Positions 19,700 to 60,030 of a stretch of DNA of 64,000 nt are shown here, in pieces. The stretch is from Acidobacteriota bacterium (GTDB taxonomy: Bacteria > Acidobacteriota > Vicinamibacteria > Fen-336). The notes beneath the pieces were generated by a model. That model did no database searches, was not told the DNA's origin, and was given only the letters and a program-made list of their open reading frames with translations. The stretch is taken from positions 801 to 64,800 of the forward strand of contig JAJDNV010000090.1 in NCBI GenBank assembly GCA_022340545.1, given 5' to 3'. A program made the position numbers and the translations under genes. Positions within the stretch are counted from its first letter, which is position 1, and the number at the start of each line of letters is the position of its first letter.

Positions 19700-20914
19700 T
19701 CAGCCGGTGTCGGCGACACGCCCGCGCGCCGCGCGCACGCCGTCGCGCAGCAGCTCGCCGAGCCAGGCGGCAGACACCACGAGCGTCACACCGACCCCCA
19801 GGACCCAGAGCCGCCCCGCCCCGACTGCGGCCGGCCCTTCCAGGGGCTGGGGCAGGAGGACGCCCGGCGCGAGGAAGAGATAGAAGCCGACGAGTCCCGC
19901 GGTGGCCCCCGCCGCGTGCGCGGCAAGCATCCGGCCCGGCCACAGCACGCCGAACGGCACGACCCAGAGGAGATACTGGGCGCTGAGCGAGCCGTAGAGA
20001 ACGTGGAAGGCCAGAAACGTGACGAGGCAGGCCCGCGCCGGGGAAAGGGCGAGCCAACCTCGGCGCGTCGCGACGGCGAGCCCGACCCAGGACACGAGGA
20101 AGAGCATCCTCGAAACGACCGAGGCAACGGGCCAGAAGCGGGCCTCGCTTCGCGCCAGATCGCCGCTCCCGAGCCAGGAGAGGCCCCGCACGAGCCCGGT
20201 CCAGCCGAAGTCGGCGATCCCGGCGTAGGCGAACAGCTCGCGCCGAAGAGCGGTGAGATCCGCGATCGCGAATGGCAAGAGGACGAGGGCCACCGGGGTC
20301 AGGGCGAGAAACGCGTAGCGCAAGGCCCGTCGCCAGGACGCTTCTCCCGCGAAGGCGAGGAACGGGAGGACCAGCACCGGGAAGGACTTCGTCCCGATCG
20401 CGGCGGCCAGCGACAACGCGGAGAGGTCGCGCCGTCCGCGGGCGAGGGCGGCGAGCGCGAGCAGGACCAGCAGGAGGGCAATCGCGTCGAACTGTCCGTG
20501 GGCGCCGGTGATGAGCACGCTCACCGGGTGGGCGGCGTAGATCCAGGCCGCCGCCGGCGGGGCGCGTCCGGCGCGTCCGGCCACGACGAGCGCGGCCACG
20601 ATGAGCAGATCGGCGAGCAGGGCCGGCAGCTTGACGTTGACGGGGAAGGTGCCCACGCCGCGCCGGGATAGCCACTCCGCCCCCGCCTCGGCAAGGGACC
20701 AGAGGGGCGGGTACGGATACAGGCGAGTCGTCTCGTACGGGTTCCAGGAGACGTCGAGTAGGTGGCGGCCCACGCGCTGGTACCGCTCGACATCGGCCAC
20801 GACGCGGTCCAGGACGAGGACCGGGGCCAGACGAAGCGCGAGGGCCAGCAGAACGGGGCCGGCGAGCGCCCGGCTCAACGGCGCGCCCTCGCTTTCGCGC
20901 GGCGTCCCCTCAAC
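19700..20914 (-). CDS. Polytopic membrane protein, putative GT-C-type glycosyltransferase (DUF2029/GT87-like)
   Basis: About 400 aa with more than 10 TM helices and the YPYPPLWSL motif in the first loop. Start is uncertain: TTG at 20879 overlaps the CHAT stop, and GTG at 20914 is the alternative. The N-terminal 130 aa of the track ORF are low-complexity and antisense to the CHAT gene. Confidence 0.5.
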   Translation of the reverse strand, partial: VEGTPRESEGAPLSRALAGPVLLALALRLAPVLVLDRVVADVERYQRVGRHLLDVSWNPYETTRLYPYPPLWSLAEAGAEWLSRRGVGTFPVNVKLPALLADLLIVAALVVAGRAGRAPPAAAWIYAAHPVSVLITGAHGQFDAIALLLVLLALAALARGRRDLSALSLAAAIGTKSFPVLVLPFLAFAGEASWRRALRYAFLALTPVALVLLPFAIADLTALRRELFAYAGIADFGWTGLVRGLSWLGSGDLARSEARFWPVASVVSRMLFLVSWVGLAVATRRGWLALSPARACLVTFLAFHVLYGSLSAQYLLWVVPFGVLWPGRMLAAHAAGATAGLVGFYLFLAPGVLLPQPLEGPAAVGAGRLWVLGVGVTLVVSAAWLGELLRDGVRAARGRVADTG

Positions 20915-22086
20915 GGCGGCCGCAGCGTCGCACCCGGGTCGCGGGCGAAGAGCACCGGCACCGCCCAGTCGAGGGCCGCGGTGCCCATCGAGTGCGCGAG
21001 GGCCACCCGGGCCTCGCGGGCGGCATCCCCCAACCCGCGTCCGAGGGCGAGGGCGGCGTAGAGCTCGCGCGCGAACGTGGTGGCCGCGGTGTCGAGGACC
21101 GCGTATTGGTTGGCCACCACCGCCGGGACCCCGGCCGCGACGAGGGCGGGGGCCATCCCCCGGTTGAAATCCACGCGCCCCCCTCGTCCGCTCTCGCAGG
21201 CGTTGAGGAAGACGAGGTCGGTGCCTCGTCGCCCGACGATCTGCCGAAAGGCCGCTGCGTCCACCGCCCTGGGTCGTCCCCTCCCATCCTCGAGGAAGAG
21301 GCATCCCTCGCGGGCGTCATCGTCGTAACTCCCGTGTCCGATGTAGTGAAGCACGTCGACCGCCTGGTCGCTCAGACGGCGGTGGAGGGCCTCGGGGGTC
21401 GCCCGGGCCACCACGCTGACCGAGGCGAGCCCGGCGTCGACGAGCGGCCGGAAACCCCGCCGCACGAGCGCGGCCTCCTCCCGGGCCGCGACCGGGGCCG
21501 CCCCCTCCGGCTCGGCGGTGGCGACGAGGATCCGAAGCCGCTCGCGTCGTCGGGAGCGGACCTCGGCGGGGACGGCGGTGAAGACGTTGCGCACGAAGTT
21601 GACGTCCGACGTGGCGAGGTGCGACCGGCGCACTGGATCGTAGGCGAGCTCCCACGGCTTGTCCGCCACCCAGTCGATCATCGAGGTGAACACGAGGTCG
21701 AGAACGCCGTCCGGCTGGAGCGAGCGGGCGACGTCGTAGAGCCGGCGGACGTCCCCGGGGAAGAGGAGCTCGAACAGGTCCCGCCCCCACGCGCGCAGCT
21801 CGCGCCCGCGGGGGAGCGTCCGGCCCCGCCCCCGGCCCTCGAGCACGGCGAGCGTCCGCTCATGCGCGCGGATGATCCTCTGCCACCTCGCCCCGGCCTC
21901 GCCACCCCGACGCGGGAACGGCGCGACGGCCCGAGCGTTGCGGAACGAAGCGAGGAGTGTCGCACTCTCGGCGGCCGGGTCGGAGGAGAGGACGAAGAGC
22001 TCGAGAACGTCGCCAGGCCCGGCGTCGGACGGGGGACGGGCGGAGGGTCGGGAGCGAGGAGACGAGGCGGCGCGGCGCGTGCTCAT
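20875..22086 (-). CDS. CHAT domain (caspase-like Cys protease) protein with an uncharacterised ~190 aa N-terminal region
   Basis: The C-terminal half has the His-Cys dyad context VLHYIGHGSYDDDAREGCLFLEDG and DLVFLNACESGRG, typical of the CHAT/caspase fold. Confidence 0.75.
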   Translation of the reverse strand: MSTRRAASSPRSRPSARPPSDAGPGDVLELFVLSSDPAAESATLLASFRNARAVAPFPRRGGEAGARWQRIIRAHERTLAVLEGRGRGRTLPRGRELRAWGRDLFELLFPGDVRRLYDVARSLQPDGVLDLVFTSMIDWVADKPWELAYDPVRRSHLATSDVNFVRNVFTAVPAEVRSRRRERLRILVATAEPEGAAPVAAREEAALVRRGFRPLVDAGLASVSVVARATPEALHRRLSDQAVDVLHYIGHGSYDDDAREGCLFLEDGRGRPRAVDAAAFRQIVGRRGTDLVFLNACESGRGGRVDFNRGMAPALVAAGVPAVVANQYAVLDTAATTFARELYAALALGRGLGDAAREARVALAHSMGTAALDWAVPVLFARDPGATLRPPLRGRRAKARARR

Positions 22087-22107
22087 GGCCCGATCTTCAC
22101 CGCACCA

Positions 22108-22124
22108 GGGTCCCCGGGGGGACC
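22108..22124 (-). terminator. GC hairpin (GGGTCCCCGGGGGGACC) just downstream of the DUF349 gene; possible terminator separating it from the CHAT operon
   Basis: 6-bp stem with a 4-nt loop, seen directly. No U-tract follows, but that is common in GC-rich genomes. Confidence 0.3.
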
Positions 22125-22144
22125 GCCCGCAAGCCCCAGGCGCC

Positions 22145-24838
22145 TCAGCCGCGCTTCCGGGACGGGCGTCGCGCCCCCGATCGGGTCCGCTCCGGTCGCG
22201 GCCTCAGCTCGAAGAACCTCTGGCAGGCACGGTTGAAGCGCTCGGCGAGGCCGCGGCCGTCCGCGCCCGGCATCGGGCCGAGGCGTCGCCATCCGGACTG
22301 CGCCGCCTCGACCTCGCTCGTGGCGGAGTGCCACCGGGCCTCCGCGGCCTCACGCCCGCCGATGGTGTTGGCGGCTAGGGCGTCGCGGAGCCGGGCCGCC
22401 AGCTCCTCGGTGCTGCCGATGGTGGCCGATCCGCCTTCCGGGGCGAGCTCCCCGAGCAGGTTCTCCACCCGGGCGATCAGCTTCTCCGCCTTCCGCCGGC
22501 TCGCCTCGGGGTCGAGCTCCGTGCCGGCGAAAGCCTGGGGATAGAGCTCCACGAGCCGGTCCCGCACCCGGGAAAATCGCTCGGCGAACGGGGTCATCAT
22601 GTCGCGAGGGAGCTCGCCGGCTTGACGCCACGCCGTCTGCGCCGTCTGGACCCGGGCCACCAGATCCTCCGGCGGAGACCCTTCGCTGCCTTCGGGGGGA
22701 AGGAGGGCTTCCAGCTCGGAGCAGATCCCCCCCCGCGTCTCCTGGACGGCCTGCAGGGCGAGGGCGTCGCGGTGCTTGTAGCGATCGAAGAAATGATCGC
22801 AGGCCTTGCGGAAGCGCTTCCACACCGCCTCCGAGCGGCTCTTCTTGACCGACCCGATCTTGCGCCATTCCGCTTGCAGTCCCTTGAGCTCGGAGGCGGT
22901 GGTCTCCCAGTCGGTCGACTCCATCATCGCCTCGGCGCGCTCGCAGAGGGCCTCTTTCTTCTCGAGGTTTGCCGCCCACTCCTTGCCGCGCTTTTCCCGC
23001 TGCTCATGCCAGCGCGTGAAGAAGCGGTCGCAGGGCTGTCGAAAGCGGTCCCAGATTCTGCGCGAGTGGGCTCGCGGCACGGGACCGACCTGCTTCCACT
23101 CGGCCTGCAGGCGGCGCAGCTCGTCCGCGGTCTTCACCCATTCCGTCGAATCGGCGAGAGACTCGGCCTTCTCGCAGAGAGATTCCTTCTTCCGGAGGTT
23201 CTCCTCCAGCTCCTCTGCCTGCTTGGCGAAGAACGCGTCGACCCGGCCCTTGACCACGTCGCGCGCGGCCTTGAACCGCGTCCAGAGCTCCTCGGCGTTT
23301 TCCTTCGGTGCCTCCTTGGCCTGCTTCCAGCGTGCGTCGAGATCCTTCAGCTTGCGTGCGGCCCGGGCCGTGTCCCGCTCTTCGATGAGGGCCTCGGCGC
23401 GCGCGCAGAGGTCCTCCTGCACAGACTCGTTGGCCCAGCGTTTCCACTCTGCATCTTCGCGCAGCTGCTGCAGCACGGGGTAGAGGGCCTTGCGGGCGGC
23501 CTCGAGCCGGGCCAGGGTCTGCTCGCGATCGAGACGCGAGGGAAAGTGTCCGGGGCGGTCGAGGGCGGAGCGGATCTCTCGCGACACGTGGTCGACGTCC
23601 CGCAGGCCGGGGTTCTCCCTGGCGAGCAGCGACTCGGCTCTTTCCACGAGGGTGGTGAGGTGTGCGAGGTTCTCACGATCCCTTCGCTCGCGCTCCTCGC
23701 GGGCGGCACGTTGGCGCCCGTGCATTCGCGCCGCCGCGTCATCGAAGCGGGTGCGGAGGTCCGGCTGGTCCTCCGAAGCCGCGAGCTCGTTCCATCGCTG
23801 CTCCACCTCCCCCCAGGCGGAGCGGTCCTCGCCGTCGGCGAGCGCCTCCGCTTTCGCCACGAGCGCGGCGAGCTCGTCACGGCGGGCGAGGCCGGTCAAG
23901 TAGGCCTGGTGGCGACGCTCGGCGGCGGCGATCGCCGCCTCGAAGCGCGCCGCGGCGCGCGCGGCTTCCTCGCCGGTGTTGGGCTCGAGTGCGTCCCACG
24001 CCGCTCGCGCCTGCTCGAGGGCGGTCGTGATGGCCTCCCCTTCCGCTCCCTCGACCGACTCGCAGAGGCGGGCTCGTGCCTCGAGGGCTACCCCTCGCTC
24101 CTTCGCCTTCTCTTCTTGTTCCGCTCGTGCCCGCTCGTAGACCTCTCGCTCCCTCTCGTTCTGCTCGATGGTGGTGGACGCCGCCGTGGGGCGGTTGGTC
24201 GCCGGCTTCTCCTGGTCGAGCCGGGCCCGCGCCCGGCGGGCGGCGGCGCCGAGTCGCGACTTCTCGGCCACGGTCTCGATCGCGCCGTAATCCTCCAGCC
24301 GGTCCACCGCCGCCACCGCGATCGCCTTCTGGTCGGATTTGAGGGCGAAGGACAGGAGGGTGGGCTCGTCGTCGATTCGGCCCAGGGCCAGAAGCCGGGT
24401 CGCCCCGTCGTCGGCTTCCCGGACGACGCTGGCGAGGGCCCGGGGGTCGTTCAATGCCTCGACCGCGGCCCCGCGCACCGCGGGCAGAACCGCCGAACGC
24501 GCCACTGACGAGAGGTGTCGAGGCTCGCTCAGGGCGGCGAGCGCGGCCCGGGTCTCCTCCTCCTCGGTGGCGTGAACGACCAGGTGCACCAGGCGTGTCG
24601 TGGCCTCCTCGCGGACGCCATCGTCGTCGTCGGTGCGGGCGAGGTCGATGAGGACCTCGGCGTCAGTCAGTTTCTTCGCCGCCGCGCGGCGGACGCGCGG
24701 CTCGTCATCCTCCCGGGCGATGGCGAGCAGGGTCTCGCGCTCGGAAGACGGGAGACGCAGGACGGCCGCGGCCCGGACCGCGGGATCGGGATCCTGCCAC
24801 TCGGGCTTGTTGAGCAGACGGTCGATGATGCCCTTCAC
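22145..24838 (-). CDS. DUF349 repeat protein with N-terminal HEAT/PBS-lyase-like repeats
   Basis: 897 aa. Multiple ~75-aa repeats carry the W..R...F...FF.RW signature (EELWTRFKAARDVVKGRVDAFFAKQ; RIWDRFRQPCDRFFTRW; AVWKRFRKACDHFFDRY), characteristic of DUF349. Confidence 0.75.
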   Translation of the reverse strand: MKGIIDRLLNKPEWQDPDPAVRAAAVLRLPSSERETLLAIAREDDEPRVRRAAAKKLTDAEVLIDLARTDDDDGVREEATTRLVHLVVHATEEEETRAALAALSEPRHLSSVARSAVLPAVRGAAVEALNDPRALASVVREADDGATRLLALGRIDDEPTLLSFALKSDQKAIAVAAVDRLEDYGAIETVAEKSRLGAAARRARARLDQEKPATNRPTAASTTIEQNEREREVYERARAEQEEKAKERGVALEARARLCESVEGAEGEAITTALEQARAAWDALEPNTGEEAARAAARFEAAIAAAERRHQAYLTGLARRDELAALVAKAEALADGEDRSAWGEVEQRWNELAASEDQPDLRTRFDDAAARMHGRQRAAREERERRDRENLAHLTTLVERAESLLARENPGLRDVDHVSREIRSALDRPGHFPSRLDREQTLARLEAARKALYPVLQQLREDAEWKRWANESVQEDLCARAEALIEERDTARAARKLKDLDARWKQAKEAPKENAEELWTRFKAARDVVKGRVDAFFAKQAEELEENLRKKESLCEKAESLADSTEWVKTADELRRLQAEWKQVGPVPRAHSRRIWDRFRQPCDRFFTRWHEQREKRGKEWAANLEKKEALCERAEAMMESTDWETTASELKGLQAEWRKIGSVKKSRSEAVWKRFRKACDHFFDRYKHRDALALQAVQETRGGICSELEALLPPEGSEGSPPEDLVARVQTAQTAWRQAGELPRDMMTPFAERFSRVRDRLVELYPQAFAGTELDPEASRRKAEKLIARVENLLGELAPEGGSATIGSTEELAARLRDALAANTIGGREAAEARWHSATSEVEAAQSGWRRLGPMPGADGRGLAERFNRACQRFFELRPRPERTRSGARRPSRKRG

Positions 24839-24914: not shown

Positions 24915-26186
24915 TCACCGACGGGGGCCCGACGGGTGGCCGTCGAGGGCCTCGATCGTGGCGGTCGAGGCCGGGCGCTCCTGCTGCAGCCGGGCCGCGA
25001 CCGCCTCCGCCTGCTTCATGACGCGGAGGATGTTGCCATTGGCCAGCTTCGCGAGGTCGGCCTCGCTCCAACCCCGCCGGATCAGCTCGGCGAAGAGGTT
25101 CGGGTACGTCGAGACGTCGTCGAGCCCCTCGGGCCATGACTCGTTGCCGTCGAAGTCGCCCCCGAGGCCGACGTGGTCGACCCCGGCCACCCGGCGCACG
25201 TGCTCGACGTGGTCGGCGACCTCGCCGATGGTGACGCGGGGCAGACGGGCCCTGATCTCGCTCCGGATCCGTTCGCGCTCCCTGGGGTCGCGAATGTCCT
25301 TCGTCCGCTCCTCGTACTCGTTCGAGAGGGGCAGGCTCGCTGCGGCGTACTCCGGCGATATGAAGCTGGCCACGAACGTGACCATGACCACGCCCCCGTT
25401 CTCCGGCAGCCGGCGAAGGATGGCGTCGGGCACGTTGCGGTGGTGGTCACACAGCGCGCGCGCCGAAGAGTGCGAGAAGATGACCGGCGCCTCGGCGACC
25501 CGCAGCGCGTCCGCCATCGTATCCGGGGAGGTGTGTGAGAGATCAACCAGCATGCCGAGGCGGTTCATCTCCCGCACCACTTCCTCGCCGAACCGGGTGA
25601 GGCCGCCGTGGCGCGGCTCCTGTCCGGAGGCGTCCGCCCAGTCGAGGGTCGCGCTGTGCGTCAGCGTCATGTAGCCCGCTCCGAGTGAGTGGAAGGCCCG
25701 CAGCGCACCCAGAGAGTTCTCAATGGCGTGACCGCCCTCGATGCCGAGGAGCGACGCCACCCGGCCCGCCTCGATGATGCGCTCGACGTCGGCCGCGCTC
25801 GTGGCCGGGGTGAGGCGCTCGGGGTAACGGGCGATCATCCGCCGGGCGAGGTCGATCTGCTCCAGCTCAAGGCGGGCCGCCCCGGCCCCGGTGGTTGCGG
25901 GCACGTAGACGGACCAGAACTGCCCACCCACGCCACCGGCACGGAGCCGCTCGAGGTCGGTGTCCCCGCTCGTGCGACGGCGGAGGTCGTAGGCCTCCAC
26001 GTCCCCGGGGGCACCCGTGCTCTCGCGGATGGCCCACGGGAGGTCGTTGTGCCCGTCGACGACGGGATGTCGGGCCACCAGCTTCCGGGCCTGGACGAGT
26101 GCGGCATCCTCCGCGCGGGCCGTGCCGGCCTGAAGGATTCCGAGGAAAGGAAGACACGAGATGGCGGTGACAAGCGTCTTGAACAT
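24915..26186 (-). CDS. Membrane dipeptidase (peptidase family M19, renal dipeptidase-like), secreted
   Basis: VDGHNDLPWAIR motif, an HSxxxDH-type metal ligands pattern and a signal peptide; 423 aa. Confidence 0.85.
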   Translation of the reverse strand: MFKTLVTAISCLPFLGILQAGTARAEDAALVQARKLVARHPVVDGHNDLPWAIRESTGAPGDVEAYDLRRRTSGDTDLERLRAGGVGGQFWSVYVPATTGAGAARLELEQIDLARRMIARYPERLTPATSAADVERIIEAGRVASLLGIEGGHAIENSLGALRAFHSLGAGYMTLTHSATLDWADASGQEPRHGGLTRFGEEVVREMNRLGMLVDLSHTSPDTMADALRVAEAPVIFSHSSARALCDHHRNVPDAILRRLPENGGVVMVTFVASFISPEYAAASLPLSNEYEERTKDIRDPRERERIRSEIRARLPRVTIGEVADHVEHVRRVAGVDHVGLGGDFDGNESWPEGLDDVSTYPNLFAELIRRGWSEADLAKLANGNILRVMKQAEAVAARLQQERPASTATIEALDGHPSGPRR

Positions 26187-26266: not shown

Positions 26267-27388
26267 TCAGGGCGCGGCGGTCGCCGGCTTCGGCATCACG
26301 CCCCGCTCGTCGAGGAGCGAGACGAGGTCCTCGGCCGCCGCACGGTGCTCGCTCGGGCCCCAGTGTCCCCGCCGACGGAGCCGCTGCCCACTCCGCGTAC
26401 GCTCGAGAAAGCTCGGCCGAAGGTTCAGGCAAGTGAGGCCCGAGTCGTGGCAGCTGGCCTCGAAGAAGCGCTCGCCCGGTGAGGGCTCAGGGGCGCCGAT
26501 CTCGTCGAGGATGGGCAGGTAGACGAACATCGCCCGCGCGCCGACCTCCCGGGCCTCGTCGCGGAGGGCCTCGAGCAGCGCCCGGCCGAGGGTGTCCCGG
26601 GCCCTGGCCTCCAGGCCGGTGCGGTCGCGCAGCCGGGCGCGGAGCATCGACAGCAGGTCGACGAACTTCGAACGCCACACCTCGCGGTCGCGGAGCTCCT
26701 CGGGCGTGGGTACCGGGACGTTGCGGAGCACGAGACGACCATCGTCGAGGTCGAAGCGGGGCTTGGCGTAGTCGAAGAAGCCGGTGCGGTTGCGCTCGAG
26801 GTCGATGTGCACGAAGCCCACGAGCACGAGGTCCGGTCGGAGCCACGGGCCTTCTTCCCGGAGCGTCAGCAACATCTGGTCGTGCCCGTACGCGTGGACG
26901 CCCAGATTGACCGGCTCCAGCGCGGGACGAAGGACGCCGAGCTGGTGCACCCACGTCTCCTCGTCGCCGACGCCCTCGCCGAACGTGAAGGAATCGCCAA
27001 GGACGGCGACTCGCACTCGCCCCGGGGGCTTCTCCGCGGGGACCTCATGCTGCCCGCGATAGCCGCGCGCCGTCGAGCTGAGCCTCTTGCCGTCGAAGGC
27101 CGGAACCCCGCTCAGCCCCGGGGCCAGGGTCCAGCCCCGGACGGGGTGGTAGACGTCGAACGGCTGGACGAGCGGCCGTCGCTCCTGCCGCCGAGCCCAG
27201 CGGAGGCGAGACGACGCCTGGTCGACGCCGGCCACGAGGCGAAAGAAGCCCTTGTGGGACAAGGCGGCGCGCGAGGCCAGCTCGAGGAAACCGAACACCG
27301 CGACGAGGTAGACCGCGAGCACCACCAGCCGGCGGACGCGCGACCGTGGCCCGGGCCCGGCCCCATCTTCGGCGGATCGCGGGCGCAA
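26267..27388 (-). CDS. Membrane-anchored SGNH/GDSL-like hydrolase family protein
   Basis: N-terminal TM anchor followed by VAVLGDSFTFGEGV (SGNH block I, catalytic Ser) and a downstream GHDQ-like block. Confidence 0.55.
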   Translation of the reverse strand: MRPRSAEDGAGPGPRSRVRRLVVLAVYLVAVFGFLELASRAALSHKGFFRLVAGVDQASSRLRWARRQERRPLVQPFDVYHPVRGWTLAPGLSGVPAFDGKRLSSTARGYRGQHEVPAEKPPGRVRVAVLGDSFTFGEGVGDEETWVHQLGVLRPALEPVNLGVHAYGHDQMLLTLREEGPWLRPDLVLVGFVHIDLERNRTGFFDYAKPRFDLDDGRLVLRNVPVPTPEELRDREVWRSKFVDLLSMLRARLRDRTGLEARARDTLGRALLEALRDEAREVGARAMFVYLPILDEIGAPEPSPGERFFEASCHDSGLTCLNLRPSFLERTRSGQRLRRRGHWGPSEHRAAAEDLVSLLDERGVMPKPATAAP

Positions 27389-39996: not shown

Positions 39997-41817
39997 ATGG
40001 AGCTCACCCCCGACAACCTGAAGGCCTTCGAAGAGATCGTCGCCCGCTACCCCGTCAAGCGCTCCGCCCTCCTGCCGACGTTGCGGCTCGTGCAGGAGCA
40101 GGAGGGCTGGATCAGCCGCGAGGCGATGGAGTACATCGCGAAGCTCCTGGACCTCAGTCCGGCCCAGGTGAAGGACACCGCCAGCTTCTACACGATGTTC
40201 CATCTCGAGCCGAAGGGGAAGACGGTCATCGAGGTGTGCACGACGCTCTCCTGTGCCCTCGGCGGGGCGGAGAAGCTGCTCGGGCACACGTGCAGGAAGC
40301 TCGGGATCGAGCCCGGGGGCACGACCGCGGACGGTAGGTTCACGGTCAAAGAGGTGGAGTGCCTCGCCGCCTGCGGGGGCGCTCCCGCGGTCCAGGTGAA
40401 CGGGGAGTGGCTCGAGCACGCCACCGAGGCCGACCTCGATCGGGTGCTGGCCGGGGAGACCGTGCGCCGGACCTTCGAGTGGCCGAAGAGCCCGGGCGAG
40501 CACCTACTCTTCCAGAACGTCTGGAAGGAGAACTCCACCTCGATCGACGTCTACAAGGCCTCCGGTGGCTACGCGAAGCTCGGCGAGTGGCTGAGGTTCG
40601 AGCCCGAGATCCTCATCGAGGAGGTCAAGAAGTCGAACCTGCGCGGCCGCGGCGGCGCAGGGTTCCCGACCGGGATGAAGTGGGGGTTTCTTCCCAAGGA
40701 GAGCCCCAGGCCCCGGTACATGTGTGTCAACGCCGACGAGAGCGAGCCCGGGACCTACAAGGACCGGGTCATCATCGAGCGCGATCCCCACCGCCTGATC
40801 GAGTCGATCGTGGTGTCCTGCCATGCGATCCGATCGAAGACCGCCTACATCTACATCCGCGGCGAGTTCCATGAGGGCGCGCGAACGCTCGAGAAGGCCC
40901 TGGCCGAGGCGAGGGCGGCGGGCTACGTCGGCAAGGACATCCTGGGCACCGGCATCGACGTCGATATCTGGGTCCACCGCGGCGCCGGCTCCTACGAGTG
41001 CGGGGAGGAGACGGCCCTCATCGAGTCGCTCGAGGGGAGGCGGGGCCAGCCCCGCATCAAGCCCCCGTTCCCGGCGGTGGTGGGGGTGTACGGCTGCCCG
41101 ACGATCGTGAACAACGTCGAGACCCTGGTCAACGTGCCGCTCATCCTCGAGCGCGGAGCGGAGTGGTTCGCAAGCTACGGCACCGAGAAGAACGGCGGAC
41201 CCAAGCTCTACTCGATCAGCGGTCACGTCGTCCGTCCTGGCAGCTACGAGGCCCCGATGGGGCGGATCACACTGCGTGACCTCATCTACGGCGAGGGGTA
41301 TGCGCAGGGGATCAAGGACGGCCGCAAGCTCAAGGCGGTCGTCCCCGGGGGCTCCTCGACGCCCGTCCTCACCGCGGACGAAATCGACATCGCGATGGAC
41401 TTCGACGGCGTGGCCAAGGCGGGATCGATGCTCGGCTCCGCTGGCACCGTCGTGATGGACGACTCGACCTGCATGGTGTGGATGGCGAAGAACCTCATCT
41501 ACTTCTACAAGCACGAGTCCTGCGGCAAGTGCTCCCCCTGCCGGGAGGGGACGGGCTGGATGTTGCGGCTCCTCGAGCGCATCGAGGCGGGGGAGGCCCA
41601 GGAGAAGGACCTGGATCTCCTCTGGAAGGTCACGGACTCGATCTCGGGCAAGACCGTGTGCCCGTTCGGCGACGCCGCGATCGCCCCGCCCCAGTCGACG
41701 CTCCAGAAGTTCCGTGAGGAGTTCGAGTACCACGTCCGCGAGGGACGCTGCTGGAAGTCGGTGGCGCCCACCTTTGAAGAGGCGAAGGCGAAGTCGGGCA
41801 GGGCGGTGTCTGCGTGA
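39997..41817 (+). CDS. nuoEF: NADH-quinone oxidoreductase fused subunits E and F (NuoE-NuoF fusion)
   Basis: The N-terminal ~160 aa carry the NuoE thioredoxin-like 2Fe-2S cysteines (CTTLSC...ECLAACGGAP). The remainder is NuoF: GRGGAGFPTGMKW FMN/NADH site and ESCGKCSPCREG 4Fe-4S. It follows nuoA directly with no nuoB/C/D between. Confidence 0.85.
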   Translation: MELTPDNLKAFEEIVARYPVKRSALLPTLRLVQEQEGWISREAMEYIAKLLDLSPAQVKDTASFYTMFHLEPKGKTVIEVCTTLSCALGGAEKLLGHTCRKLGIEPGGTTADGRFTVKEVECLAACGGAPAVQVNGEWLEHATEADLDRVLAGETVRRTFEWPKSPGEHLLFQNVWKENSTSIDVYKASGGYAKLGEWLRFEPEILIEEVKKSNLRGRGGAGFPTGMKWGFLPKESPRPRYMCVNADESEPGTYKDRVIIERDPHRLIESIVVSCHAIRSKTAYIYIRGEFHEGARTLEKALAEARAAGYVGKDILGTGIDVDIWVHRGAGSYECGEETALIESLEGRRGQPRIKPPFPAVVGVYGCPTIVNNVETLVNVPLILERGAEWFASYGTEKNGGPKLYSISGHVVRPGSYEAPMGRITLRDLIYGEGYAQGIKDGRKLKAVVPGGSSTPVLTADEIDIAMDFDGVAKAGSMLGSAGTVVMDDSTCMVWMAKNLIYFYKHESCGKCSPCREGTGWMLRLLERIEAGEAQEKDLDLLWKVTDSISGKTVCPFGDAAIAPPQSTLQKFREEFEYHVREGRCWKSVAPTFEEAKAKSGRAVSA

Positions 41818-42857
41818 CGCCCCTCGCCGAGGAGCTGCTCGTCACGTTCGTCAAGATCGTGATCGTCGTGGGGGCGCTCCTGGGTGGTTTCTCCGTCATG
41901 ACCTGGGTGGAGCGGCGGAGCCTCGCCTTCATGCAATACCGCCTCGGCCCCAACCGGACCGGGCCTTTCGGGATCCTCCAGCCCATCGCCGACGGCATCA
42001 AGCTGTTCTTCAAGGAAGAGGTGATGCCGGTCGCTGCGAACAAGTGGACCTTCCTCGCCGCCCCGGTGGTCGCGGTGGCGACGGCGCTCTTGGCGACGGC
42101 GGTGATCCCCTACGGGCCGCCCTTCGAGGCGTTCGGAAGGACCCTGCAGATCCAGATTGCCGACATCGAGGTGGGGCTCCTCTTCATCTTTGCCGTCACC
42201 GCCCTCGGCGTCTACGGGGTCGTCCTGGCCGGCTGGGCGGCCAACAACAAGTACTCGCTCCTCGGCGGGCTCCGCTCCTCGGCCCAGATGTTCTCGTACG
42301 AGCTGGCGCTGGGCTTCTCGTGGGTCACCCTGATCCTTGCCGCGCGCTCCTTCCGGATCAATGACATCGTGGACACCCAGGCGGGCGGATTCTGGCACTG
42401 GAACGTCGTCGTGCACTTCCCGGCCTTCATCGTCTACTTCCTGGCCGCCACCGCCGAGGTGGCCCGGATCCCGTTCGACCTCCCGGAGGGTGAGAGCGAG
42501 ATCGTGGCCGGATTCCACACCGAGTATGCGTCCATGCGGTTCGCCCTCATCCAGATGGCCGAGTACATCAACATGATCACGGTGACCGTTCTCCTCGCGA
42601 ACCTCTTCTTCGGGGGCTGGCACTCCGGCGTCCCGGGGATGCCGGAGAGCCTGGGTGGCTTCCCGCTGGGCTTCGTGTGGTGGGGCCTCAAGGTGGCCTT
42701 CTTCCTCTTCGTCTTCATCTGGCTTCGGGGGACGCTGCCGCGCTTCCGCTACGATCAGCTCATGCAGTTCGGCTGGAAGGTCCTGATCCCGGTGGCCGCG
42801 GTCTGGGTCATGACCTTCGCGGTCCTGTGGGTCGTCGTCGGTGGTGGTCCGCGATGA
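41814..42857 (+). CDS. nuoH: NADH-quinone oxidoreductase subunit H
   Basis: 347 aa polytopic with the ND1 signature (...AEYINM..., RYDQLM). GTG start overlaps the nuoEF stop (GTGA). Confidence 0.9.
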   Translation: MTPLAEELLVTFVKIVIVVGALLGGFSVMTWVERRSLAFMQYRLGPNRTGPFGILQPIADGIKLFFKEEVMPVAANKWTFLAAPVVAVATALLATAVIPYGPPFEAFGRTLQIQIADIEVGLLFIFAVTALGVYGVVLAGWAANNKYSLLGGLRSSAQMFSYELALGFSWVTLILAARSFRINDIVDTQAGGFWHWNVVVHFPAFIVYFLAATAEVARIPFDLPEGESEIVAGFHTEYASMRFALIQMAEYINMITVTVLLANLFFGGWHSGVPGMPESLGGFPLGFVWWGLKVAFFLFVFIWLRGTLPRFRYDQLMQFGWKVLIPVAAVWVMTFAVLWVVVGGGPR

Positions 42858-43351
42858 TGATCGACGCCGTCCTCTTCTACGTCTTCGCCGCCATCGCGGT
42901 CGCGTCGGCCGTGGTCGTCATTGGCCAGCGCAACCCCATGTACTCGGCCTTTGCCCTGGTGGTGACGCTGTGCTCGGTCGCCGTCATCTTCGGCCTGCTC
43001 GGCTCCCCGTTCATCGCCGTTCTGCAGGTGATCGTGTACGCGGGCGCGATCATGGTCCTCTTCCTGTTCGTGCTGATGCTCCTCAACGTGAAGCGCGAGA
43101 AGGACTCGCCGAGCAGGGGCCAGCGCACCCTCAGCGGGGTTGCCCTCGCCCTGGTGACGGTGCTGGTTCTCCAGGCGGGGGCCGTCCTGCTCCGCTCGAG
43201 GCCGACCCCGGCCCCGGACTACGACGCCTCGACCTTCGAGATGGCGAAGATCCTCTTCTCGCCGCACTTCCTCTACGCCTTCGAGGCGACCTCCATCCTC
43301 ATCCTCGCCGCCCTGGTGGGAGCGGTGGTGCTGGCGAAGAAGGAGCTCTAG
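42854..43351 (+). CDS. nuoJ: NADH-quinone oxidoreductase subunit J
   Basis: 165 aa ND6-like from ATG 42854, overlapping the nuoH stop as ATGA. No nuoI lies between nuoH and nuoJ. Confidence 0.85.
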
Positions 43352-43355
43352 CGCG

Positions 43356-43667
43356 ATGGAGAACCCCGCCTTCGTGCACCACGCCGTCGTGCTGAGCCTC
43401 ATCCTCTTCGCCCTCGGCACCCTCGGTGTCTTCCTGCGCCGCAACGTCATCACCGTGCTCATGTGCGTCGAGCTGATGCTGAACGGCGTCAACCTGGCCT
43501 TCGTGGCCTTCAGCCGGGCCCAGGGTACGCTCGACGGCCAGGTCCTAGTGTTCTTCGTGATGGTGGTGGCGGCGGCGGAGGCCGCAGTCGGGCTGGCCAT
43601 CGTCATCGCCCTCCACCGGCACCGGGACACGCTGGACCTGGACGCCTTCAACCTCATGAAGGGATAG
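43356..43667 (+). CDS. nuoK: NADH-quinone oxidoreductase subunit K
   Basis: 103 aa, ND4L signature ([17 protein letters not shown]). Confidence 0.85.
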
Positions 43668-43670
43668 GTC

Positions 43671-45584
43671 GTGCTCGACGATCCACTGCTCAAGATCCTG
43701 CCCTTCGCCATCCTGCTCCTGCCCCTCGGCGGGTTCGTCGTTCTCGCCCTCTTTGGCGACTGGATCAAGCGGGACAAGGAGGAGACGGGCGCCGCCTGGC
43801 TCGCCTGCGCCACCGTAATCATCTCCTTCGGCCTCGCGGCCTGGACGACGGTGCGGCTCTACGGCCTGGTGGCGGGCGAGGGCGGGCTCCGGTTCTTCCA
43901 GCCGTACCTCGGTTATGAGTGGATGGAGGCGGGCGGGTTCAGCGTGCCCTACAGCCTCCTGGTGGATCCCCTCTCCTGCGTGATGATGCTGGTGGTCACC
44001 GGGGTGGGCTCTCTCATCCACGTCTACTCGGTGGGCTACATGGCCCACGACGAGGACCGGGTCCCCTACTTCTCGTATCTGAACCTCTTCACCTTCTTCA
44101 TGCTGCTGCTCGTGCTGGGCGGCAACCTCCCGCTGATGTTCGTCGGCTGGGAGGGGGTGGGGCTGTGCTCCTACCTCCTCATCGGGTTCTGGTACCGCAA
44201 GGACAGCGCCGCCGCCGCCGGCCTCAAGGCGTTCATCGTCAACCGGATCGGCGACGCGGGGCTCATCCTGGGCATGATCTTCGTCTTCCACGCCTTCGGG
44301 AGCCTCGACCTGGTGGACATCGCCGACAACGCGGGGTCGCTGGCCCCCGAGGGCCTGTGGGAGTTCGGGCCGGCGACGATCGCCGCCCTCCTTCTCTTCG
44401 TCGGCGCCACCGGGAAGAGCGCCCAGATCCCCCTCCACGTGTGGCTGCCTGATGCCATGGAGGGCCCCACGCCGGTCTCCGCCCTCATCCACGCCGCCAC
44501 CATGGTGACCGCGGGCGTCTACATGGTGGCGCGCCTCGGGCCGCTCTACCACGTCTCGGAGACCGCGATGATGACGGTCGCGGTCGTCGGCGCGGTGACG
44601 GCCCTCATGGCCGCGACCATCGCCCTCGTCCAGACCGACATCAAGCGGGTGCTGGCCTACTCCACGGTGAGCCAGCTCGGCTACATGTTCCTGGCCTGTG
44701 GGGTGGGGGCGTTCGGGGTCGGCATCTTCCACCTCTACACCCACGCCTTCTTCAAGGCGCTCCTCTTCCTCGGCTCGGGCTCCGTGATCCACGCGATGTC
44801 GGGGGAGCAGGACATGCAGAGGATGGGCGGCCTCCGAAAGAGAATCCCCTGGACCTTCTGGACGTTCCTCGCGGGAACGCTCGCAATCGCCGGGATCCCC
44901 TTCTTCGCCGGCTTCTTCAGCAAGGACGAGATCCTCGCCGCGGCCCTGGGCCACCCCGTGCTCCTCGGGATCGGTCTCTTCACCGCGCTCCTGACCGCCT
45001 TCTATATGGCCCGTCTGCTCTTCCTGACGTTCTTCGGGGATTTCCGCGGAGGGGAGGAGGCCGAGCACCACCTGCACGAGTCGCCGTGGGTCATGCTTGT
45101 GCCGCTCATCCTGCTCGCCATCGGCTCCGCCGCGGGGGGCTTCGTCAAGATCCCGGAGATCGTCCAGCCCGTCTTCCGCCTGGGCCACGGGCATATCCCC
45201 CACGTGGCGTGGCTCCCGGTAGCGGCCACGCTCAGCGCGATCGCCGGCATCCTCGGCGCCTACTATCTCTACCTGGCGATGCCCGAGCTGCGGGCGGGGC
45301 TCGCCTCCACGTTCCGGCCCGCCCTCCGCGTCTTCGCCGCCAAGTACTACTGGGATGACGTCTATAACGGTTTCGTCCGGCGGGTGGTCGTGAGGGGCAG
45401 TGACCTGGTGCTCTGGCAGGGCGTCGACAACCGCGTGGTCGACGGTGCGGTCAACCGGACCGCCACCATCACCGGGGCGCTCGCCGAGATGCTTCGCCCC
45501 CTGCAGACCGGCTTCGTGCGGCAATACGCGCTACTCATCCTCGCCGGGGCGGTCGCGCTCCTCGGGTACCTCCTCTGGCCATGA
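43671..45584 (+). CDS. nuoL: NADH-quinone oxidoreductase subunit L
   Basis: 637 aa ND5-like antiporter subunit, GTG start. Confidence 0.9.
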   Translation: MLDDPLLKILPFAILLLPLGGFVVLALFGDWIKRDKEETGAAWLACATVIISFGLAAWTTVRLYGLVAGEGGLRFFQPYLGYEWMEAGGFSVPYSLLVDPLSCVMMLVVTGVGSLIHVYSVGYMAHDEDRVPYFSYLNLFTFFMLLLVLGGNLPLMFVGWEGVGLCSYLLIGFWYRKDSAAAAGLKAFIVNRIGDAGLILGMIFVFHAFGSLDLVDIADNAGSLAPEGLWEFGPATIAALLLFVGATGKSAQIPLHVWLPDAMEGPTPVSALIHAATMVTAGVYMVARLGPLYHVSETAMMTVAVVGAVTALMAATIALVQTDIKRVLAYSTVSQLGYMFLACGVGAFGVGIFHLYTHAFFKALLFLGSGSVIHAMSGEQDMQRMGGLRKRIPWTFWTFLAGTLAIAGIPFFAGFFSKDEILAAALGHPVLLGIGLFTALLTAFYMARLLFLTFFGDFRGGEEAEHHLHESPWVMLVPLILLAIGSAAGGFVKIPEIVQPVFRLGHGHIPHVAWLPVAATLSAIAGILGAYYLYLAMPELRAGLASTFRPALRVFAAKYYWDDVYNGFVRRVVVRGSDLVLWQGVDNRVVDGAVNRTATITGALAEMLRPLQTGFVRQYALLILAGAVALLGYLLWP

Positions 45585-47140
45585 GCGTCCTGAACCAGCA
45601 CCTGCTCAGCGTCCTCATCTTCCTGCCCGTGGTGGGTGCGGTCGCCATCGCCCTCAGCCGGCGCGAGTCGGAGACGCTCCAGAAGATCCTCGGCCTCGTC
45701 TTCTCGACCGCGGGCTTCGCCCTGTCCCTCCTCCTGGTGCGGGGCTTCCAGGACGTGGCCGGCATGCAGTTCGTGGAGAGGGGGCGGTGGATCCCGGCCT
45801 GGGGAATCTCCTACGCCGTCGGCGTGGACGGCCTGTCTCTGTGGCTGGTGATCCTGACCACGTTCCTCACCCCGCTCGCCCTCTTGGGCTCCTGGAGCTC
45901 CATCGACCGGCGGGTCAAGGAGTTCGTCGTCTTCATGCTGCTGCTCGAGGCGGGGATGATCGGGGTCTTCGTGGCCCTCGACCTCTTCCTCTTCTACGTC
46001 TTCTGGGAGGCGATGCTGATCCCGATGTACTTCCTCATCGGGATCTGGGGGCACGAGAGGCGCATCTACGCCGCGGTGAAGTTCTTCCTCTTCACCTTCG
46101 CCGGCAGCGTGCTCATGCTGGTCGCGTTCCTGGTCCTATACCGGACCGCTGGCGTGGGCAGCTTCGATCTCGCGGTGCTCGTCGCTGCGCCCGTCGACCC
46201 CGCCCTGCAGGTCTGGCTGTTCCTCGCCTGCGCGCTGGCCTTCGCCATCAAGGTTCCGATGTTCCCGTTCCACACGTGGCTCCCCGACGCCCACGTCGAG
46301 GCCCCCACCGCGGGCTCGGTGATCCTGGCCGGGGTGCTGCTCAAGATGGGGGGCTACGGCTTCCTGCGGATCGCCATCCCGCTCTTTCCCGAGGCGGCGG
46401 TGCGTTTCGCCCCCCTGATCGGCGTCCTGGCCGTCATCGGGATCATCTACGGGGCCCTCGTCGCGCTGGTGCAGCCCGACCTCAAGAAGCTCGTGGCGTA
46501 CTCGTCGGTCGCCCACCTCGGCTTCGTGATGCTCGGCATCGCCGCCTTCACGACCACCGGTCTGGTTGGATCCGTCTACCAGATGCTGAACCATGGTATC
46601 TCGACCGGGGCGCTCTTCTTCCTGGTGGGGATGCTCTACGACCGACGCCACACCCGGCTCATCTCGGAGTTCGGGGGCCTCAAGGCGATCATCCCCTGGT
46701 ACACCGCGGTCTTTCTCATGATCAGCCTCTCCTCGATCGCCATGCCCGGTTTCAACGGCTTCGTGGGCGAGTTCCTGATCCTCGTGGGCTCCTGGCCCTT
46801 CAGCCCGACGCTGGTGGTGCTTGCCTCCCTGGGCGTCATCCTGGCCGCCGGCTACATCCTCTGGATGGTGAAGCGCGTGTTCTACGGTGAGCCCACCAAC
46901 CCGAAGAACGAGAAGCTCCCCGACCTCAGTCTCCGGGAGGCGGCCGTCCTCGTGCCCCTCGTCGCCCTCGCCTTCTTCATGGGCGTGGCGAGCCCCCTCT
47001 TCACGAAGCGCATCGAGCCCGCCGCGGACGCCCTCGTGGTGCAGGTGCAGGAGAGGACCCGGCCCATCGCCGCCGCGAGCCTGGGCCCCGTCGCACCGCC
47101 CCGGGCGTCCCGCGCCGACCCCGCGGAGGCCCAGCGGTGA
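45581..47140 (+). CDS. nuoM: NADH-quinone oxidoreductase subunit M
   Basis: 519 aa ND4-like; overlaps nuoL by 4 nt. Confidence 0.9.
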   Translation: MSVLNQHLLSVLIFLPVVGAVAIALSRRESETLQKILGLVFSTAGFALSLLLVRGFQDVAGMQFVERGRWIPAWGISYAVGVDGLSLWLVILTTFLTPLALLGSWSSIDRRVKEFVVFMLLLEAGMIGVFVALDLFLFYVFWEAMLIPMYFLIGIWGHERRIYAAVKFFLFTFAGSVLMLVAFLVLYRTAGVGSFDLAVLVAAPVDPALQVWLFLACALAFAIKVPMFPFHTWLPDAHVEAPTAGSVILAGVLLKMGGYGFLRIAIPLFPEAAVRFAPLIGVLAVIGIIYGALVALVQPDLKKLVAYSSVAHLGFVMLGIAAFTTTGLVGSVYQMLNHGISTGALFFLVGMLYDRRHTRLISEFGGLKAIIPWYTAVFLMISLSSIAMPGFNGFVGEFLILVGSWPFSPTLVVLASLGVILAAGYILWMVKRVFYGEPTNPKNEKLPDLSLREAAVLVPLVALAFFMGVASPLFTKRIEPAADALVVQVQERTRPIAAASLGPVAPPRASRADPAEAQR

Positions 47141-48588
47141 GCGGCGAGCTCGATCTCCGTCCCCTCGTCCCGGCGATCATCGTCGGCGTCACCGGCCTCG
47201 TGGTCCTCCTCGCCCAGGCGTTCACGCCGAAGGACAGGCGGGCTCCCTCGGCGCCGCTCAGCCTCACCGGCCTCCTCGCCGCCCTCGCTGCGGTGTGGCT
47301 CCTGGCCAGCGGGGGCGGCCGCGGGGCGGTCCTGGCGAACGCGGTGAGCGCAGACGCGTACTCCCTCTTCTTCCAGGCACTCCTCCTCGGGATCGCCGCG
47401 GTGGCGGTGCTGCTGTCGCCGTCCTACTTGCGCGCGAACGGGCTCGATCGCGGCGAGTACTACGCGCTGCTGCTCTTCTCGGTGGTGGGGATGCTCGGCC
47501 TGGTGTCGAGCCTCGAGCTCGTGTCGATGTTCGTGGCCCTCGAGATCATGTCCATCGCCCTGTACGGGATGGCGGGGTTGTACCGCAGCCGGATGGAGAG
47601 CCAGGAGGCCGCGCTCAAGTACTTCGTCACCGGGGCGTTCTCTTCTGCCTTCTTCCTGTATGGCGTCGCGCTTCTCTACGGCGTGAGCGGCAGCACGTCG
47701 CTCGACCGCCTGGAGTGGGCGGTGAGCACGCTCACGACGGATTCGGCCGCCCTCGCCCTCCTCGGCGCGGGGATGCTCCTCGTTGGCTTCGGCTTCAAGA
47801 TCGCGAGCGTTCCCTTCCACATGTGGGCGCCCGACGTCTACGAGGGAGCCCCCACCCCCGCGACCGCCCTCATGTCGGCCGGGGTCAAGGCCGCGGCCTT
47901 CGGCGCGCTGCTGCGGGTGTTCGGCTCTGCGCTCCACGCGCTCGCCGGCGAGTGGCAGCCGCTGGTGGCCTCGTTGGCGGTCATCACCATGGTCGTCGGG
48001 AACCTCGCAGCGCTGGCCCAGGGCAACCTGAAGCGCATGCTCGCCTTCTCGTCGGTCGCCCATGCCGGCTACGTGCTCACCGCGCTCGTGGCCAGCCCCG
48101 GCCAGGCCGGGGAGGCGGTGCTGTTCTACCTGGTCGTCTACGGGGCCGTGAACCTCGGCGCCTTCGGGACGATCGCCGCCCTCTCCCGGGAGGGACGCGA
48201 GCCGCTCTCCCTGGGCGACGTGGCCGGAATGGCCGAGCGCCGACCCGCGCTGGCCGCCGCCCTCGCCGTGTTCCTCGTGTCGCTCACCGGCATCCCCGTG
48301 ACCGCGGGGTTCGTGGGCAAGTTCTACCTGTTCAATGCCGCCGTGACCGCGGGCTGGGTGGGGCTCGCCCTCGTGGGCGTGCTGATGAGCGTCGTCTCCG
48401 CCTACTACTACCTGCGGGTCGTGGTGGCGATGTACATGCGCGACCCGCTGGGTGAGGACACCTGGGCGCGCGTGTCGCCATCGGCCACGGTGGCTCTCGC
48501 CCTCTCCGCCGTGATCACGCTCGTCCTCGGGATCTACCCGGCGCCGGTCCTGACCCTGGCCCGCATCGCCGCCCGGTCGCTCCTGTAG
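47137..48588 (+). CDS. nuoN: NADH-quinone oxidoreductase subunit N
   Basis: 483 aa ND2-like; GTG start overlaps nuoM by 4 nt. Confidence 0.9.
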   Translation: MSGELDLRPLVPAIIVGVTGLVVLLAQAFTPKDRRAPSAPLSLTGLLAALAAVWLLASGGGRGAVLANAVSADAYSLFFQALLLGIAAVAVLLSPSYLRANGLDRGEYYALLLFSVVGMLGLVSSLELVSMFVALEIMSIALYGMAGLYRSRMESQEAALKYFVTGAFSSAFFLYGVALLYGVSGSTSLDRLEWAVSTLTTDSAALALLGAGMLLVGFGFKIASVPFHMWAPDVYEGAPTPATALMSAGVKAAAFGALLRVFGSALHALAGEWQPLVASLAVITMVVGNLAALAQGNLKRMLAFSSVAHAGYVLTALVASPGQAGEAVLFYLVVYGAVNLGAFGTIAALSREGREPLSLGDVAGMAERRPALAAALAVFLVSLTGIPVTAGFVGKFYLFNAAVTAGWVGLALVGVLMSVVSAYYYLRVVVAMYMRDPLGEDTWARVSPSATVALALSAVITLVLGIYPAPVLTLARIAARSLL

Positions 48589-59901: not shown

Positions 59902-60030
59902 GTCGCACAGGCCCCGTCCCGCCGGCCCCGTCCGGCCGCCGGGACGGGACCTCAGGCGCAACTCCGGCCAGCTTTGACTCCCCCGGAAACCGCGTGGGAC
60001 AATCGTCGACAGGGGGTTTCCTCGTCCGAC

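Follow-up and report, generated by a model that had tools for sequence, protein, structure and literature searches.

Why should a bacterium translate an envelope glycosyltransferase directly from the end of a caspase-like protease gene? The question is raised by a 64,000-nt stretch of DNA (hereafter the window; contig JAJDNV010000090.1, positions 801 to 64,800) from an Acidobacteriota bacterium of the class Vicinamibacteria, an abundant, barely cultured soil class. Three genes follow one another there on the minus strand, encoding a DUF349 protein, a CHAT protease and a polytopic GT-C membrane protein of the GT87 family. The overall picture that we propose is that of a lineage-restricted operon in which a cytoplasmic CHAT protease is co-ordinated with an envelope GT-C glycosyltransferase, and we give this picture a probability of about 0.5. 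CHAT, GT87/MptA_B and DUF349 are all known families; their association is new. An earlier note on this DNA, made from the letters alone, had not recognised the combination of a CHAT protease with a GT-C-like membrane protein from any known system, and no description of a CHAT and GT-C or glycosyltransferase pairing was found in the literature searched. Should the coupling prove functional, it would be, to our knowledge, the first bacterial example of a caspase-like protease paired with a GT-C glycosyltransferase of the envelope in place of an immune sensor.

Is the protease likely to be functional? The translation of the minus-strand open reading frame (ORF) 20875-22086 contains HYIGHGSYDDD and FLNACESGRG, the motifs in which a CHAT His/Cys dyad had been read, and Pfam bears that reading out with a match to CHAT (PF12770) over residues 101-379 of the 403-aa protein (E=4e-31, 108.9 bits against a cut-off of 24). 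As the match starts at residue 101, the unassigned N-terminal region shrinks from the 190 residues first proposed to about 100, and residues 26-100 are conserved among relatives. His251 and Cys297, the HxGHG and NAC residues of the dyad, are invariant in all 137 sequences compared (121 short-form relatives and 16 long-form relatives, described below), and the protein is 64-88% identical across the class Vicinamibacteria. Because of this invariance and this degree of identity, the active site is regarded as intact and the gene as being under strong purifying selection. The AlphaFold model, built from a 20-sequence alignment, reaches a predicted local distance difference test score (pLDDT) of 61 overall and of about 80-90 in the core (residues 184-381), the quality of the N-terminal ~180 residues being too low for a structural reading. 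When the core was searched with Foldseek, SAVED-CHAT (PDB 8tl0) was the best match, followed by DdvA, Csx29, MALT1, caspases and separase, and a PDB profile search also matched 8tl0; the modelled core is thereby confirmed as a caspase/hemoglobinase fold. Neither a signal peptide, a transmembrane (TM) segment nor a hydrophobic N-terminal segment was found in the CHAT sequence, and the ORF is already maximal, so that no upstream start is possible. Since it carries no export signal or TM segment, we infer a cytoplasmic location, and the product would be a catalytically intact clan-CD cysteine protease acting in that compartment.

The partner gene encodes a putative sugar transferase of the envelope. 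Pfam assigns the membrane protein to GT87 (31.3 bits against a cut-off of 25), with PIG-U (E=0.002, 17.6 bits against a cut-off of 24.5) and ALG6/8 below threshold, and a precomputed match to PF26314, the MptA_B_family, is on record. The AlphaFold model (pLDDT 90.3) has about 12 TM helices, in line with the earlier description of a GT-C-like protein of more than ten, and its best Foldseek matches are glycosylphosphatidylinositol (GPI) mannosyltransferase I (PIG-M), PIG-U, ALG6 and PimE, with TM-scores of about 0.55-0.65. Invariant residues lie mostly in predicted periplasmic loops: D25, D30, D43, E50 and the YPYPP motif in loop 1, then H128-F131, K165-P168 and R214-W236 (the numbering from D25 to P168 is that of the 393-residue translation of 19700-20881). 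In its fold and its loop acidic residues, the protein thus has the features to be expected of a PimE/PIG-M-type GT-C enzyme that is active and depends on polyprenyl-phosphate sugars; one of the conserved acidic residues is presumably catalytic. The GT87/MptA-MptB mannosyltransferases (PimE, PDB 9dm5) and PIG-M have the same 12-TM GT-C fold and acidic residues in loop 1, with an identity between the window protein and these solved members of only 14-18%.

How tightly are the two genes joined, and how widely? In the window, the CHAT stop codon TGA (20877-20875) overlaps a TTG (20878-20876) of the membrane-protein frame, with a GAGGG 7 nt upstream. Gene calls on three public contigs that encode an identical CHAT protein start the 392-aa product at the same base, which independently supports the stop/start overlap first noticed by eye. 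We know of no characterised GT87/MptA-MptB member that is translationally coupled to a protease. When 185,579 species genomes were scanned for a pattern derived from a CHAT alignment, 52 loci came up; metagenome contigs, scanned likewise from a GT87 alignment, gave 80. Within the genome set, all 18 loci (17 from genomes and the window itself) have an NTGA overlap with GTG or TTG as start codon, and CHAT lies directly upstream of GT87 with an NTGA junction in 47 of the 80 metagenome loci (GTGA 33, TTGA 9, ATGA 5). The pairing is therefore conserved among relatives, and the doubt on this point in the earlier note can be set aside. GT87 translation is thus coupled to CHAT translation through the conserved overlap.

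The third gene shares this conservation. All 17 of the Vicinamibacteria genome loci that are long enough to show it have the genes in the order DUF349-CHAT-GT87. A neighbour-joining tree divides the GT87 proteins into two clades, one (A, at least 60% identity) coupled to CHAT and the other (B, 50-58% identity) having neither CHAT nor DUF349 beside it; DUF349 lies upstream of CHAT in every clade-A locus whose contig has room for it. Genes for an M19 dipeptidase, a rhodanese-methyltransferase, Fpg and UbiD are often syntenic with the trio, yet they come and go. Because gene order, NTGA overlap and short gaps are all conserved, DUF349, CHAT and GT87 seem to behave as one operon, which is part of the core genome, confined to GT87 clade A of the Vicinamibacteria (Acidobacteriota) and, in our view, vertically inherited. 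The coordinates of the trio and of the related loci are collected in Table 1.

Table 1. Positions of the trio, its upstream neighbours and related loci (window positions where no locus is named)
Feature	Locus	Position	Strand	Description
DUF349 protein		22145-24838	-	897 aa; first gene of the conserved trio; six DUF349 repeats
DUF349-CHAT spacer		22087-22144	-	58 nt, with a 16-nt GC hairpin at 22109-22124
CHAT protease		20875-22086	-	403 aa; stand-alone; clan CD, caspase-like; His251/Cys297
TTGA junction		20875-20878	-	glycosyltransferase TTG start overlapping the CHAT TGA stop
GT-C membrane protein		19700-20878	-	392 aa; Pfam GT87 / MptA_B family; YPYPP motif
M19 membrane dipeptidase		24915-26186	-	Pfam; co-directional, upstream of the trio
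GDSL/SGNH-like hydrolase		26267-27388	-	Pfam; co-directional, upstream of the M19 gene
CHAT deletion	L064	4812-4992		57-codon remnant: N-terminal GDVL joined to C-terminal ...ELYAQLA...PVVFVR..REPPR*; ends in GTGA
CHAT deletion	L087	738-765		only the last ~16 nt of CHAT and GTGA left
Clade-B cluster	L108	4666-8726		sister GT87 clade cluster
Clade-B cluster	L127	3852-6125		sister GT87 clade cluster
Clade-B cluster	L116			sister GT87 clade cluster
Clade-B cluster	L119			sister GT87 clade cluster
Clade-B cluster	L124			sister GT87 clade cluster
Long-form CHAT	L016	8408-11770		long-form example
Long-form CHAT	L017	8414-11785		long-form example
Long-form CHAT	L022	4512-7997		long-form example
Long-form CHAT	L023	8462-11074		long-form example
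Long-form CHAT	L043	8282-12046		long-form example

What does the first gene of the operon contribute? Pfam finds DUF349 (PF03993) with 257 bits over six stretches of the 897-aa protein, so that the DUF349 half of the original "HEAT+DUF349" description stands. The HEAT half does not reach threshold (HEAT 22.6 against 23.5 bits, HEAT_2 18.8 against 27.7), and what can be seen at residues ~15-160 of this HEAT-like region is a repeated D-x-x-x-VR-x-x-A pattern. In the literature searched, the one DUF349 relative with experimental data is MSMEG_2731 of M. smegmatis, which binds nucleic acids as well as ribosomal protein S1 (PMC3348880). Tandem DUF349 repeats are common to both proteins, the window protein having six of them and a HEAT-like N-terminus where MSMEG_2731 has three (PMC3348880).

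The gap between DUF349 and CHAT had been described as a 17-nt hairpin only; in fact the hairpin has 16 nt and lies within a spacer of 58 nt. Among relatives the two genes are 3-60 nt apart, mostly 3-40 nt and in many lineages 3-10 nt, and the 58-nt form is confined to the subclade of the window. The hairpin (GGTCCC-CCCG-GGGACC) consists of 6 bp and a 4-nt loop, without a T-tract. Compared with dinucleotide shuffles the spacer fold is unremarkable (z=+0.6; 145 of 200 shuffles fold as well), an Rfam search of the spacer gave no match, and a consensus scan for terminator-like sites found none in it. Together with the absence of this spacer from most relatives, these results rule it out as a regulatory RNA or terminator. 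The same subclade (the window, L001-L004 and L053-L058) also has an additional Arg/Lys-rich tail of 14-20 aa at the C-terminus of CHAT (RPPLRGRRAKARARR; 20879-20920 in the window). Its junction is TTGA; most other clade-A CHAT proteins end in ...ARDPREPLR with GTGA.

Where does this short CHAT protease come from? Its nearest relatives in other phyla are proteins of 860-1270 aa in which a DUF7379 domain or a dynamin-like GTPase shares the chain with CHAT, and long forms occur in Holophagales, Thermoanaerobaculia, Bryobacteraceae, Acidobacteriaceae, Nitrospira, Gemmatimonas, Bradyrhizobium and Verrucomicrobia. The homologous module corresponds to residues ~26-390 of the window protein, with 45-58% identity that includes the WVADKPWE and ANQY motifs as well as the His/Cys dyad. 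It occupies residues ~500-940 of the long forms, being C-terminal in those of ~860 aa and followed by an extension of ~220 aa in those of ~1120-1250 aa. The N-terminal part of the long forms is a DUF7379 alpha/beta hydrolase with conserved HGTFS, HSRGG, NDLVVPT and V.H motifs, which to judge by their sequence would amount to a Ser-Asp-His triad. Compared with these DUF7379-CHAT proteins, the window CHAT is without the ~500-aa hydrolase N-terminus and the ~220-aa C-terminal extension. In an exhaustive search of 1.84 billion protein representatives, clustered at 50% identity, the short Vicinamibacteria CHAT formed two clusters, and the long forms formed more than 100 and made up most of the best 150. 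Because of this disproportion, we regard the short form as a derived truncation, and the Vicinamibacteria CHAT as a truncated offshoot of the DUF7379-CHAT family. Fission of a long gene with a DUF7379 half left nearby was considered and rejected, because a hidden Markov model (HMM) of the long-form N-termini gave no match, either in the window or in any Vicinamibacteria locus. Short and long CHAT never occurred together in one Vicinamibacteria assembly of the genome scan, and ten representatives of lengths unlike either form included no CHAT-GT87 fusion.

The long forms also differ in their company. Their neighbours are variable housekeeping genes (ComEC, histidine kinase, MgtC, AcrB, GNAT, GDPD, aspartate kinase, argininosuccinate synthase), and neither GT87 nor DUF349 was found near them by tblastn and with the GT87 HMM. 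A hidden, divergent GT87 beside the long forms can be dismissed, since the GT87 HMM, run against six-frame ORFs of the 52 genome loci, matched only Vicinamibacteria; likewise, the large membrane proteins encoded next to the long forms proved with Pfam to be ComEC, AcrB, MgtC and histidine kinase. Other architectures exist. In an uncultured Acidobacteriota lineage, a dynamin-like GTPase (Dynamin_N) is fused in frame to the CHAT module (L026:7523-11110); L052:7343-10918 is a frameshift-ridden relative of this fusion, and L039 encodes a stand-alone CHAT of 394 aa that is 67% identical to its CHAT part. A relative of 1685 aa, P0390, combines a WD40 beta-propeller with DUF7379 and CHAT, which hints that some long-form branches may have repeat-type sensor domains. 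DUF7379 was not mentioned in the literature searched. DUF7379-CHAT proteins thus form a large, uncharacterised two-enzyme family spread over several phyla, which may merit follow-up more than the window locus itself.

What might the protease do next to a glycosyltransferase? All known partners of the CHAT module act on membranes or lipids (the lipase-like hydrolase, the dynamin-like GTPase and the GT-C enzyme), and for this reason a membrane-proximal regulatory role can be put forward. CHAT would be a site-specific regulatory or processing protease working at the inner membrane face, its output being co-ordinated with the synthesis of envelope glycoconjugates, and the DUF349 protein, as the other cytoplasmic product of the operon, would be a candidate substrate or scaffold. 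The link between CHAT and GT87 would be modulatory rather than obligatory, given that loci which have lost CHAT still retain the glycosyltransferase, and the protease would not be an anti-phage or conflict effector. That the two proteins touch each other directly seems to us rather doubtful, at odds clearly lower than even.

Several observations weigh against this proposal, and most of them favour the main alternative, namely that the clade-A ancestor by accident acquired a truncated CHAT gene in the gap between DUF349 and GT87, that the products work independently and that the NTGA junction merely preserves expression of the downstream gene. Clade-B GT87 proteins also belong to Vicinamibacteria (HLA78107.1), and their genes lie in a cluster of their own, made up of a GDSL hydrolase, GT87, a PMT_2-type GT-C protein and a second GDSL hydrolase, without CHAT. 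In two clade-A loci, L064 and L087, CHAT has been deleted with DUF349, GT87 and the GTGA junction kept; loss of the protease is evidently compatible with retention of the glycosyltransferase and DUF349, and on the genome evidence CHAT would be dispensable in some lineages. An obligate pairing, as might have been read from the window alone, can hence be discarded: the pairing does not reach beyond a single GT87 clade within one class, and it is broken by clade B, by the CHAT proteins of other phyla, with their variable neighbours, and by the two deletions. The view of DUF349 as a HEAT-type CHAT partner fares no better, its basis being operon membership only and DUF349 staying where CHAT is lost. 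Synteny in the class, moreover, extends to the whole region, with the genes for M19, rhodanese-methyltransferase, Fpg and UbiD travelling alongside the trio, and adjacency could therefore be largely inherited and not selected. The cytoplasmic loops of GT87 are short and a clade-A-specific cytoplasmic patch was not found on it: the positions that discriminate clades A and B are scattered and mostly periplasmic or within TM helices, so that a docking surface of this kind received no support. To this may be added the modest overall quality of the CHAT model, the fact that the membrane and lipid theme is derived from three architectures, and the fact that a physical or functional interaction between CHAT and GT87 is a proposal from gene context. 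On the other side, a mere accident would hardly explain why an exact 4-nt overlap survives in about 65 loci despite protein divergence to ~60-65% identity, while M19 and rhodanese-methyltransferase vary, nor why CHAT itself, with its invariant dyad, seems to be so strongly selected. We consider the accidental origin unlikely on balance, yet by some distance the most serious of the alternatives to a co-ordinated operon.

Could the locus instead belong to a defence system, as the conflict-system framing of the earlier note implied, or be a bacterial relative of the GPI transamidase? CHAT proteases do serve as effectors in several defence systems, such as SAVED-CHAT, Craspase and Borvo, and the DUF349/HEAT protein might then be the sensor. 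The nearest solved core is indeed that of SAVED-CHAT (type III CRISPR-associated; profile E=3e-10, Foldseek E=2e-10, ~25% identity over ~215 residues), PADLOC matches the window protein to SAVED_CHAT (E=4.5e-18) and BovA (E=3.7e-5), the distant P0390 carries WD40 repeats and the dynamin part of L026 weakly matches LeoA in PADLOC. Both matches to the window protein, however, are limited to the CHAT domain, the SAVED_CHAT one covering model positions 103-275. SAVED-CHAT has a SAVED sensor and a CRISPR context, whereas Pfam and PADLOC found no SAVED, TPR or NTPase sensor domain in the window CHAT, no CRISPR-Cas, CBASS, cyclase or other defence genes among the neighbours of the trio, and no genes of cyclic-oligonucleotide signalling; a PADLOC scan of GT87, DUF349 and M19 gave no matches either. 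The caspase-like CHAT fold is shared with the TPR-CHAT protein Csx29 of Craspase, the DdvA anti-sigma factor and separase, but the window protein has neither their TPR or helical regulatory arms nor partners of the gRAMP, sigma-factor or securin type, and it fails HetF membership (NCBIfam NF045509) by a wide margin (13.3 bits against a cut-off of 1200). Core synteny beside UbiD, Fpg, pyruvate kinase and the nuo operon, a single locus per genome in the pattern scan and a sequence conservation that is atypical of defence genes point the same way, and we regard a role in defence as very improbable. The comparison with GPI transamidase, in which PIGK and PIGU form the core, starts from a true likeness, for there too a clan-CD cysteine protease meets a GT-C-like polytopic membrane protein, and their joint reaction would be a transamidation that links a protein to a glycolipid. 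The best structural matches of the membrane protein include PIG-U (three GPI-transamidase structures) and GPI mannosyltransferase I at TM ~0.6, Pfam gives the weak PIG-U match mentioned above, and the protease partner is made in a coupled fashion. Even so, a CHAT protein without signal peptide or TM segment should be cytoplasmic when the conserved GT-C face is periplasmic; it is no C13 peptidase and is dispensable in two lineages; the other transamidase subunits are absent; and the membrane protein keeps the loop-1 acidic residues of an active transferase and passes the threshold of GT87, not that of PIG-U. An analogue of this enzyme is thus scarcely credible. We attach similarly little belief to the bolder idea of a CHAT and GT-C membrane complex that would covalently couple a protein to a polyprenol- or glycolipid-linked glycan, or proteolytically license it for this, as a bacterial counterpart of PIGK-PIGU, of which a protease-gated switch of an envelope glycosyltransferase would be the weaker form.

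The co-ordinated operon therefore has to be judged as an association that is robust but narrow, in which the protease is dispensable and the mechanism is a proposal. A functional coupling would widen CHAT biology beyond conflict systems to housekeeping tasks of the cell envelope; a purely historical link would leave an ordinary lineage-specific operon. The deletion variants L064 and L087 offer ready-made natural controls for the contribution of the protease. As regards clade B, its second GDSL hydrolase has 371 aa, is described as 'lysophospholipase L1-like' and is followed by an enolase-superfamily or MFS gene. The idea that an insertion had split an ancestral GDSL-GT87 pair was also considered, and the likeness proved too weak, the window GDSL protein being ~35% identical over ~100 aa to the upstream GDSL of clade B.

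Homologous sequences, too, assign the source of the DNA to the class Vicinamibacteria. With respect to its setting, the window has a G+C content of ~71%, and the genes of the trio are closely packed, with the high third-position G+C of real genes. Their near neighbours are, according to Pfam, UbiD, CrcB, Fpg, rhodanese-methyltransferase, the M19 dipeptidase, the GDSL hydrolase, Memo and DsbA, and thiolase, pyruvate kinase, the nuo (complex I) operon and PurH lie farther off. The locus is thus syntenic core genome among housekeeping genes and no variable island. The M19 and GDSL genes are usually syntenic with the trio, M19 lying upstream of it in most, not all, clade-A loci, and their membership in the trio is not supported. 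On the plus strand near PurH, the window also encodes an 803-aa membrane protein with a C-terminal match to the YfhO family, another GT-C-like family (53877-56288), and a 678-aa multi-TPR protein (59974-62010), with no link seen between either gene and the CHAT locus. The nuo operon is partial (39997-48588, plus strand) and comprises a fused NuoE/F-like protein with 2Fe-2S and 51K subunit parts, NuoH and three Proton_antipo_M subunits; its lower G+C (0.66-0.69) and strongly negative AT skew are consistent with the coding of membrane proteins, rather than with foreign DNA.

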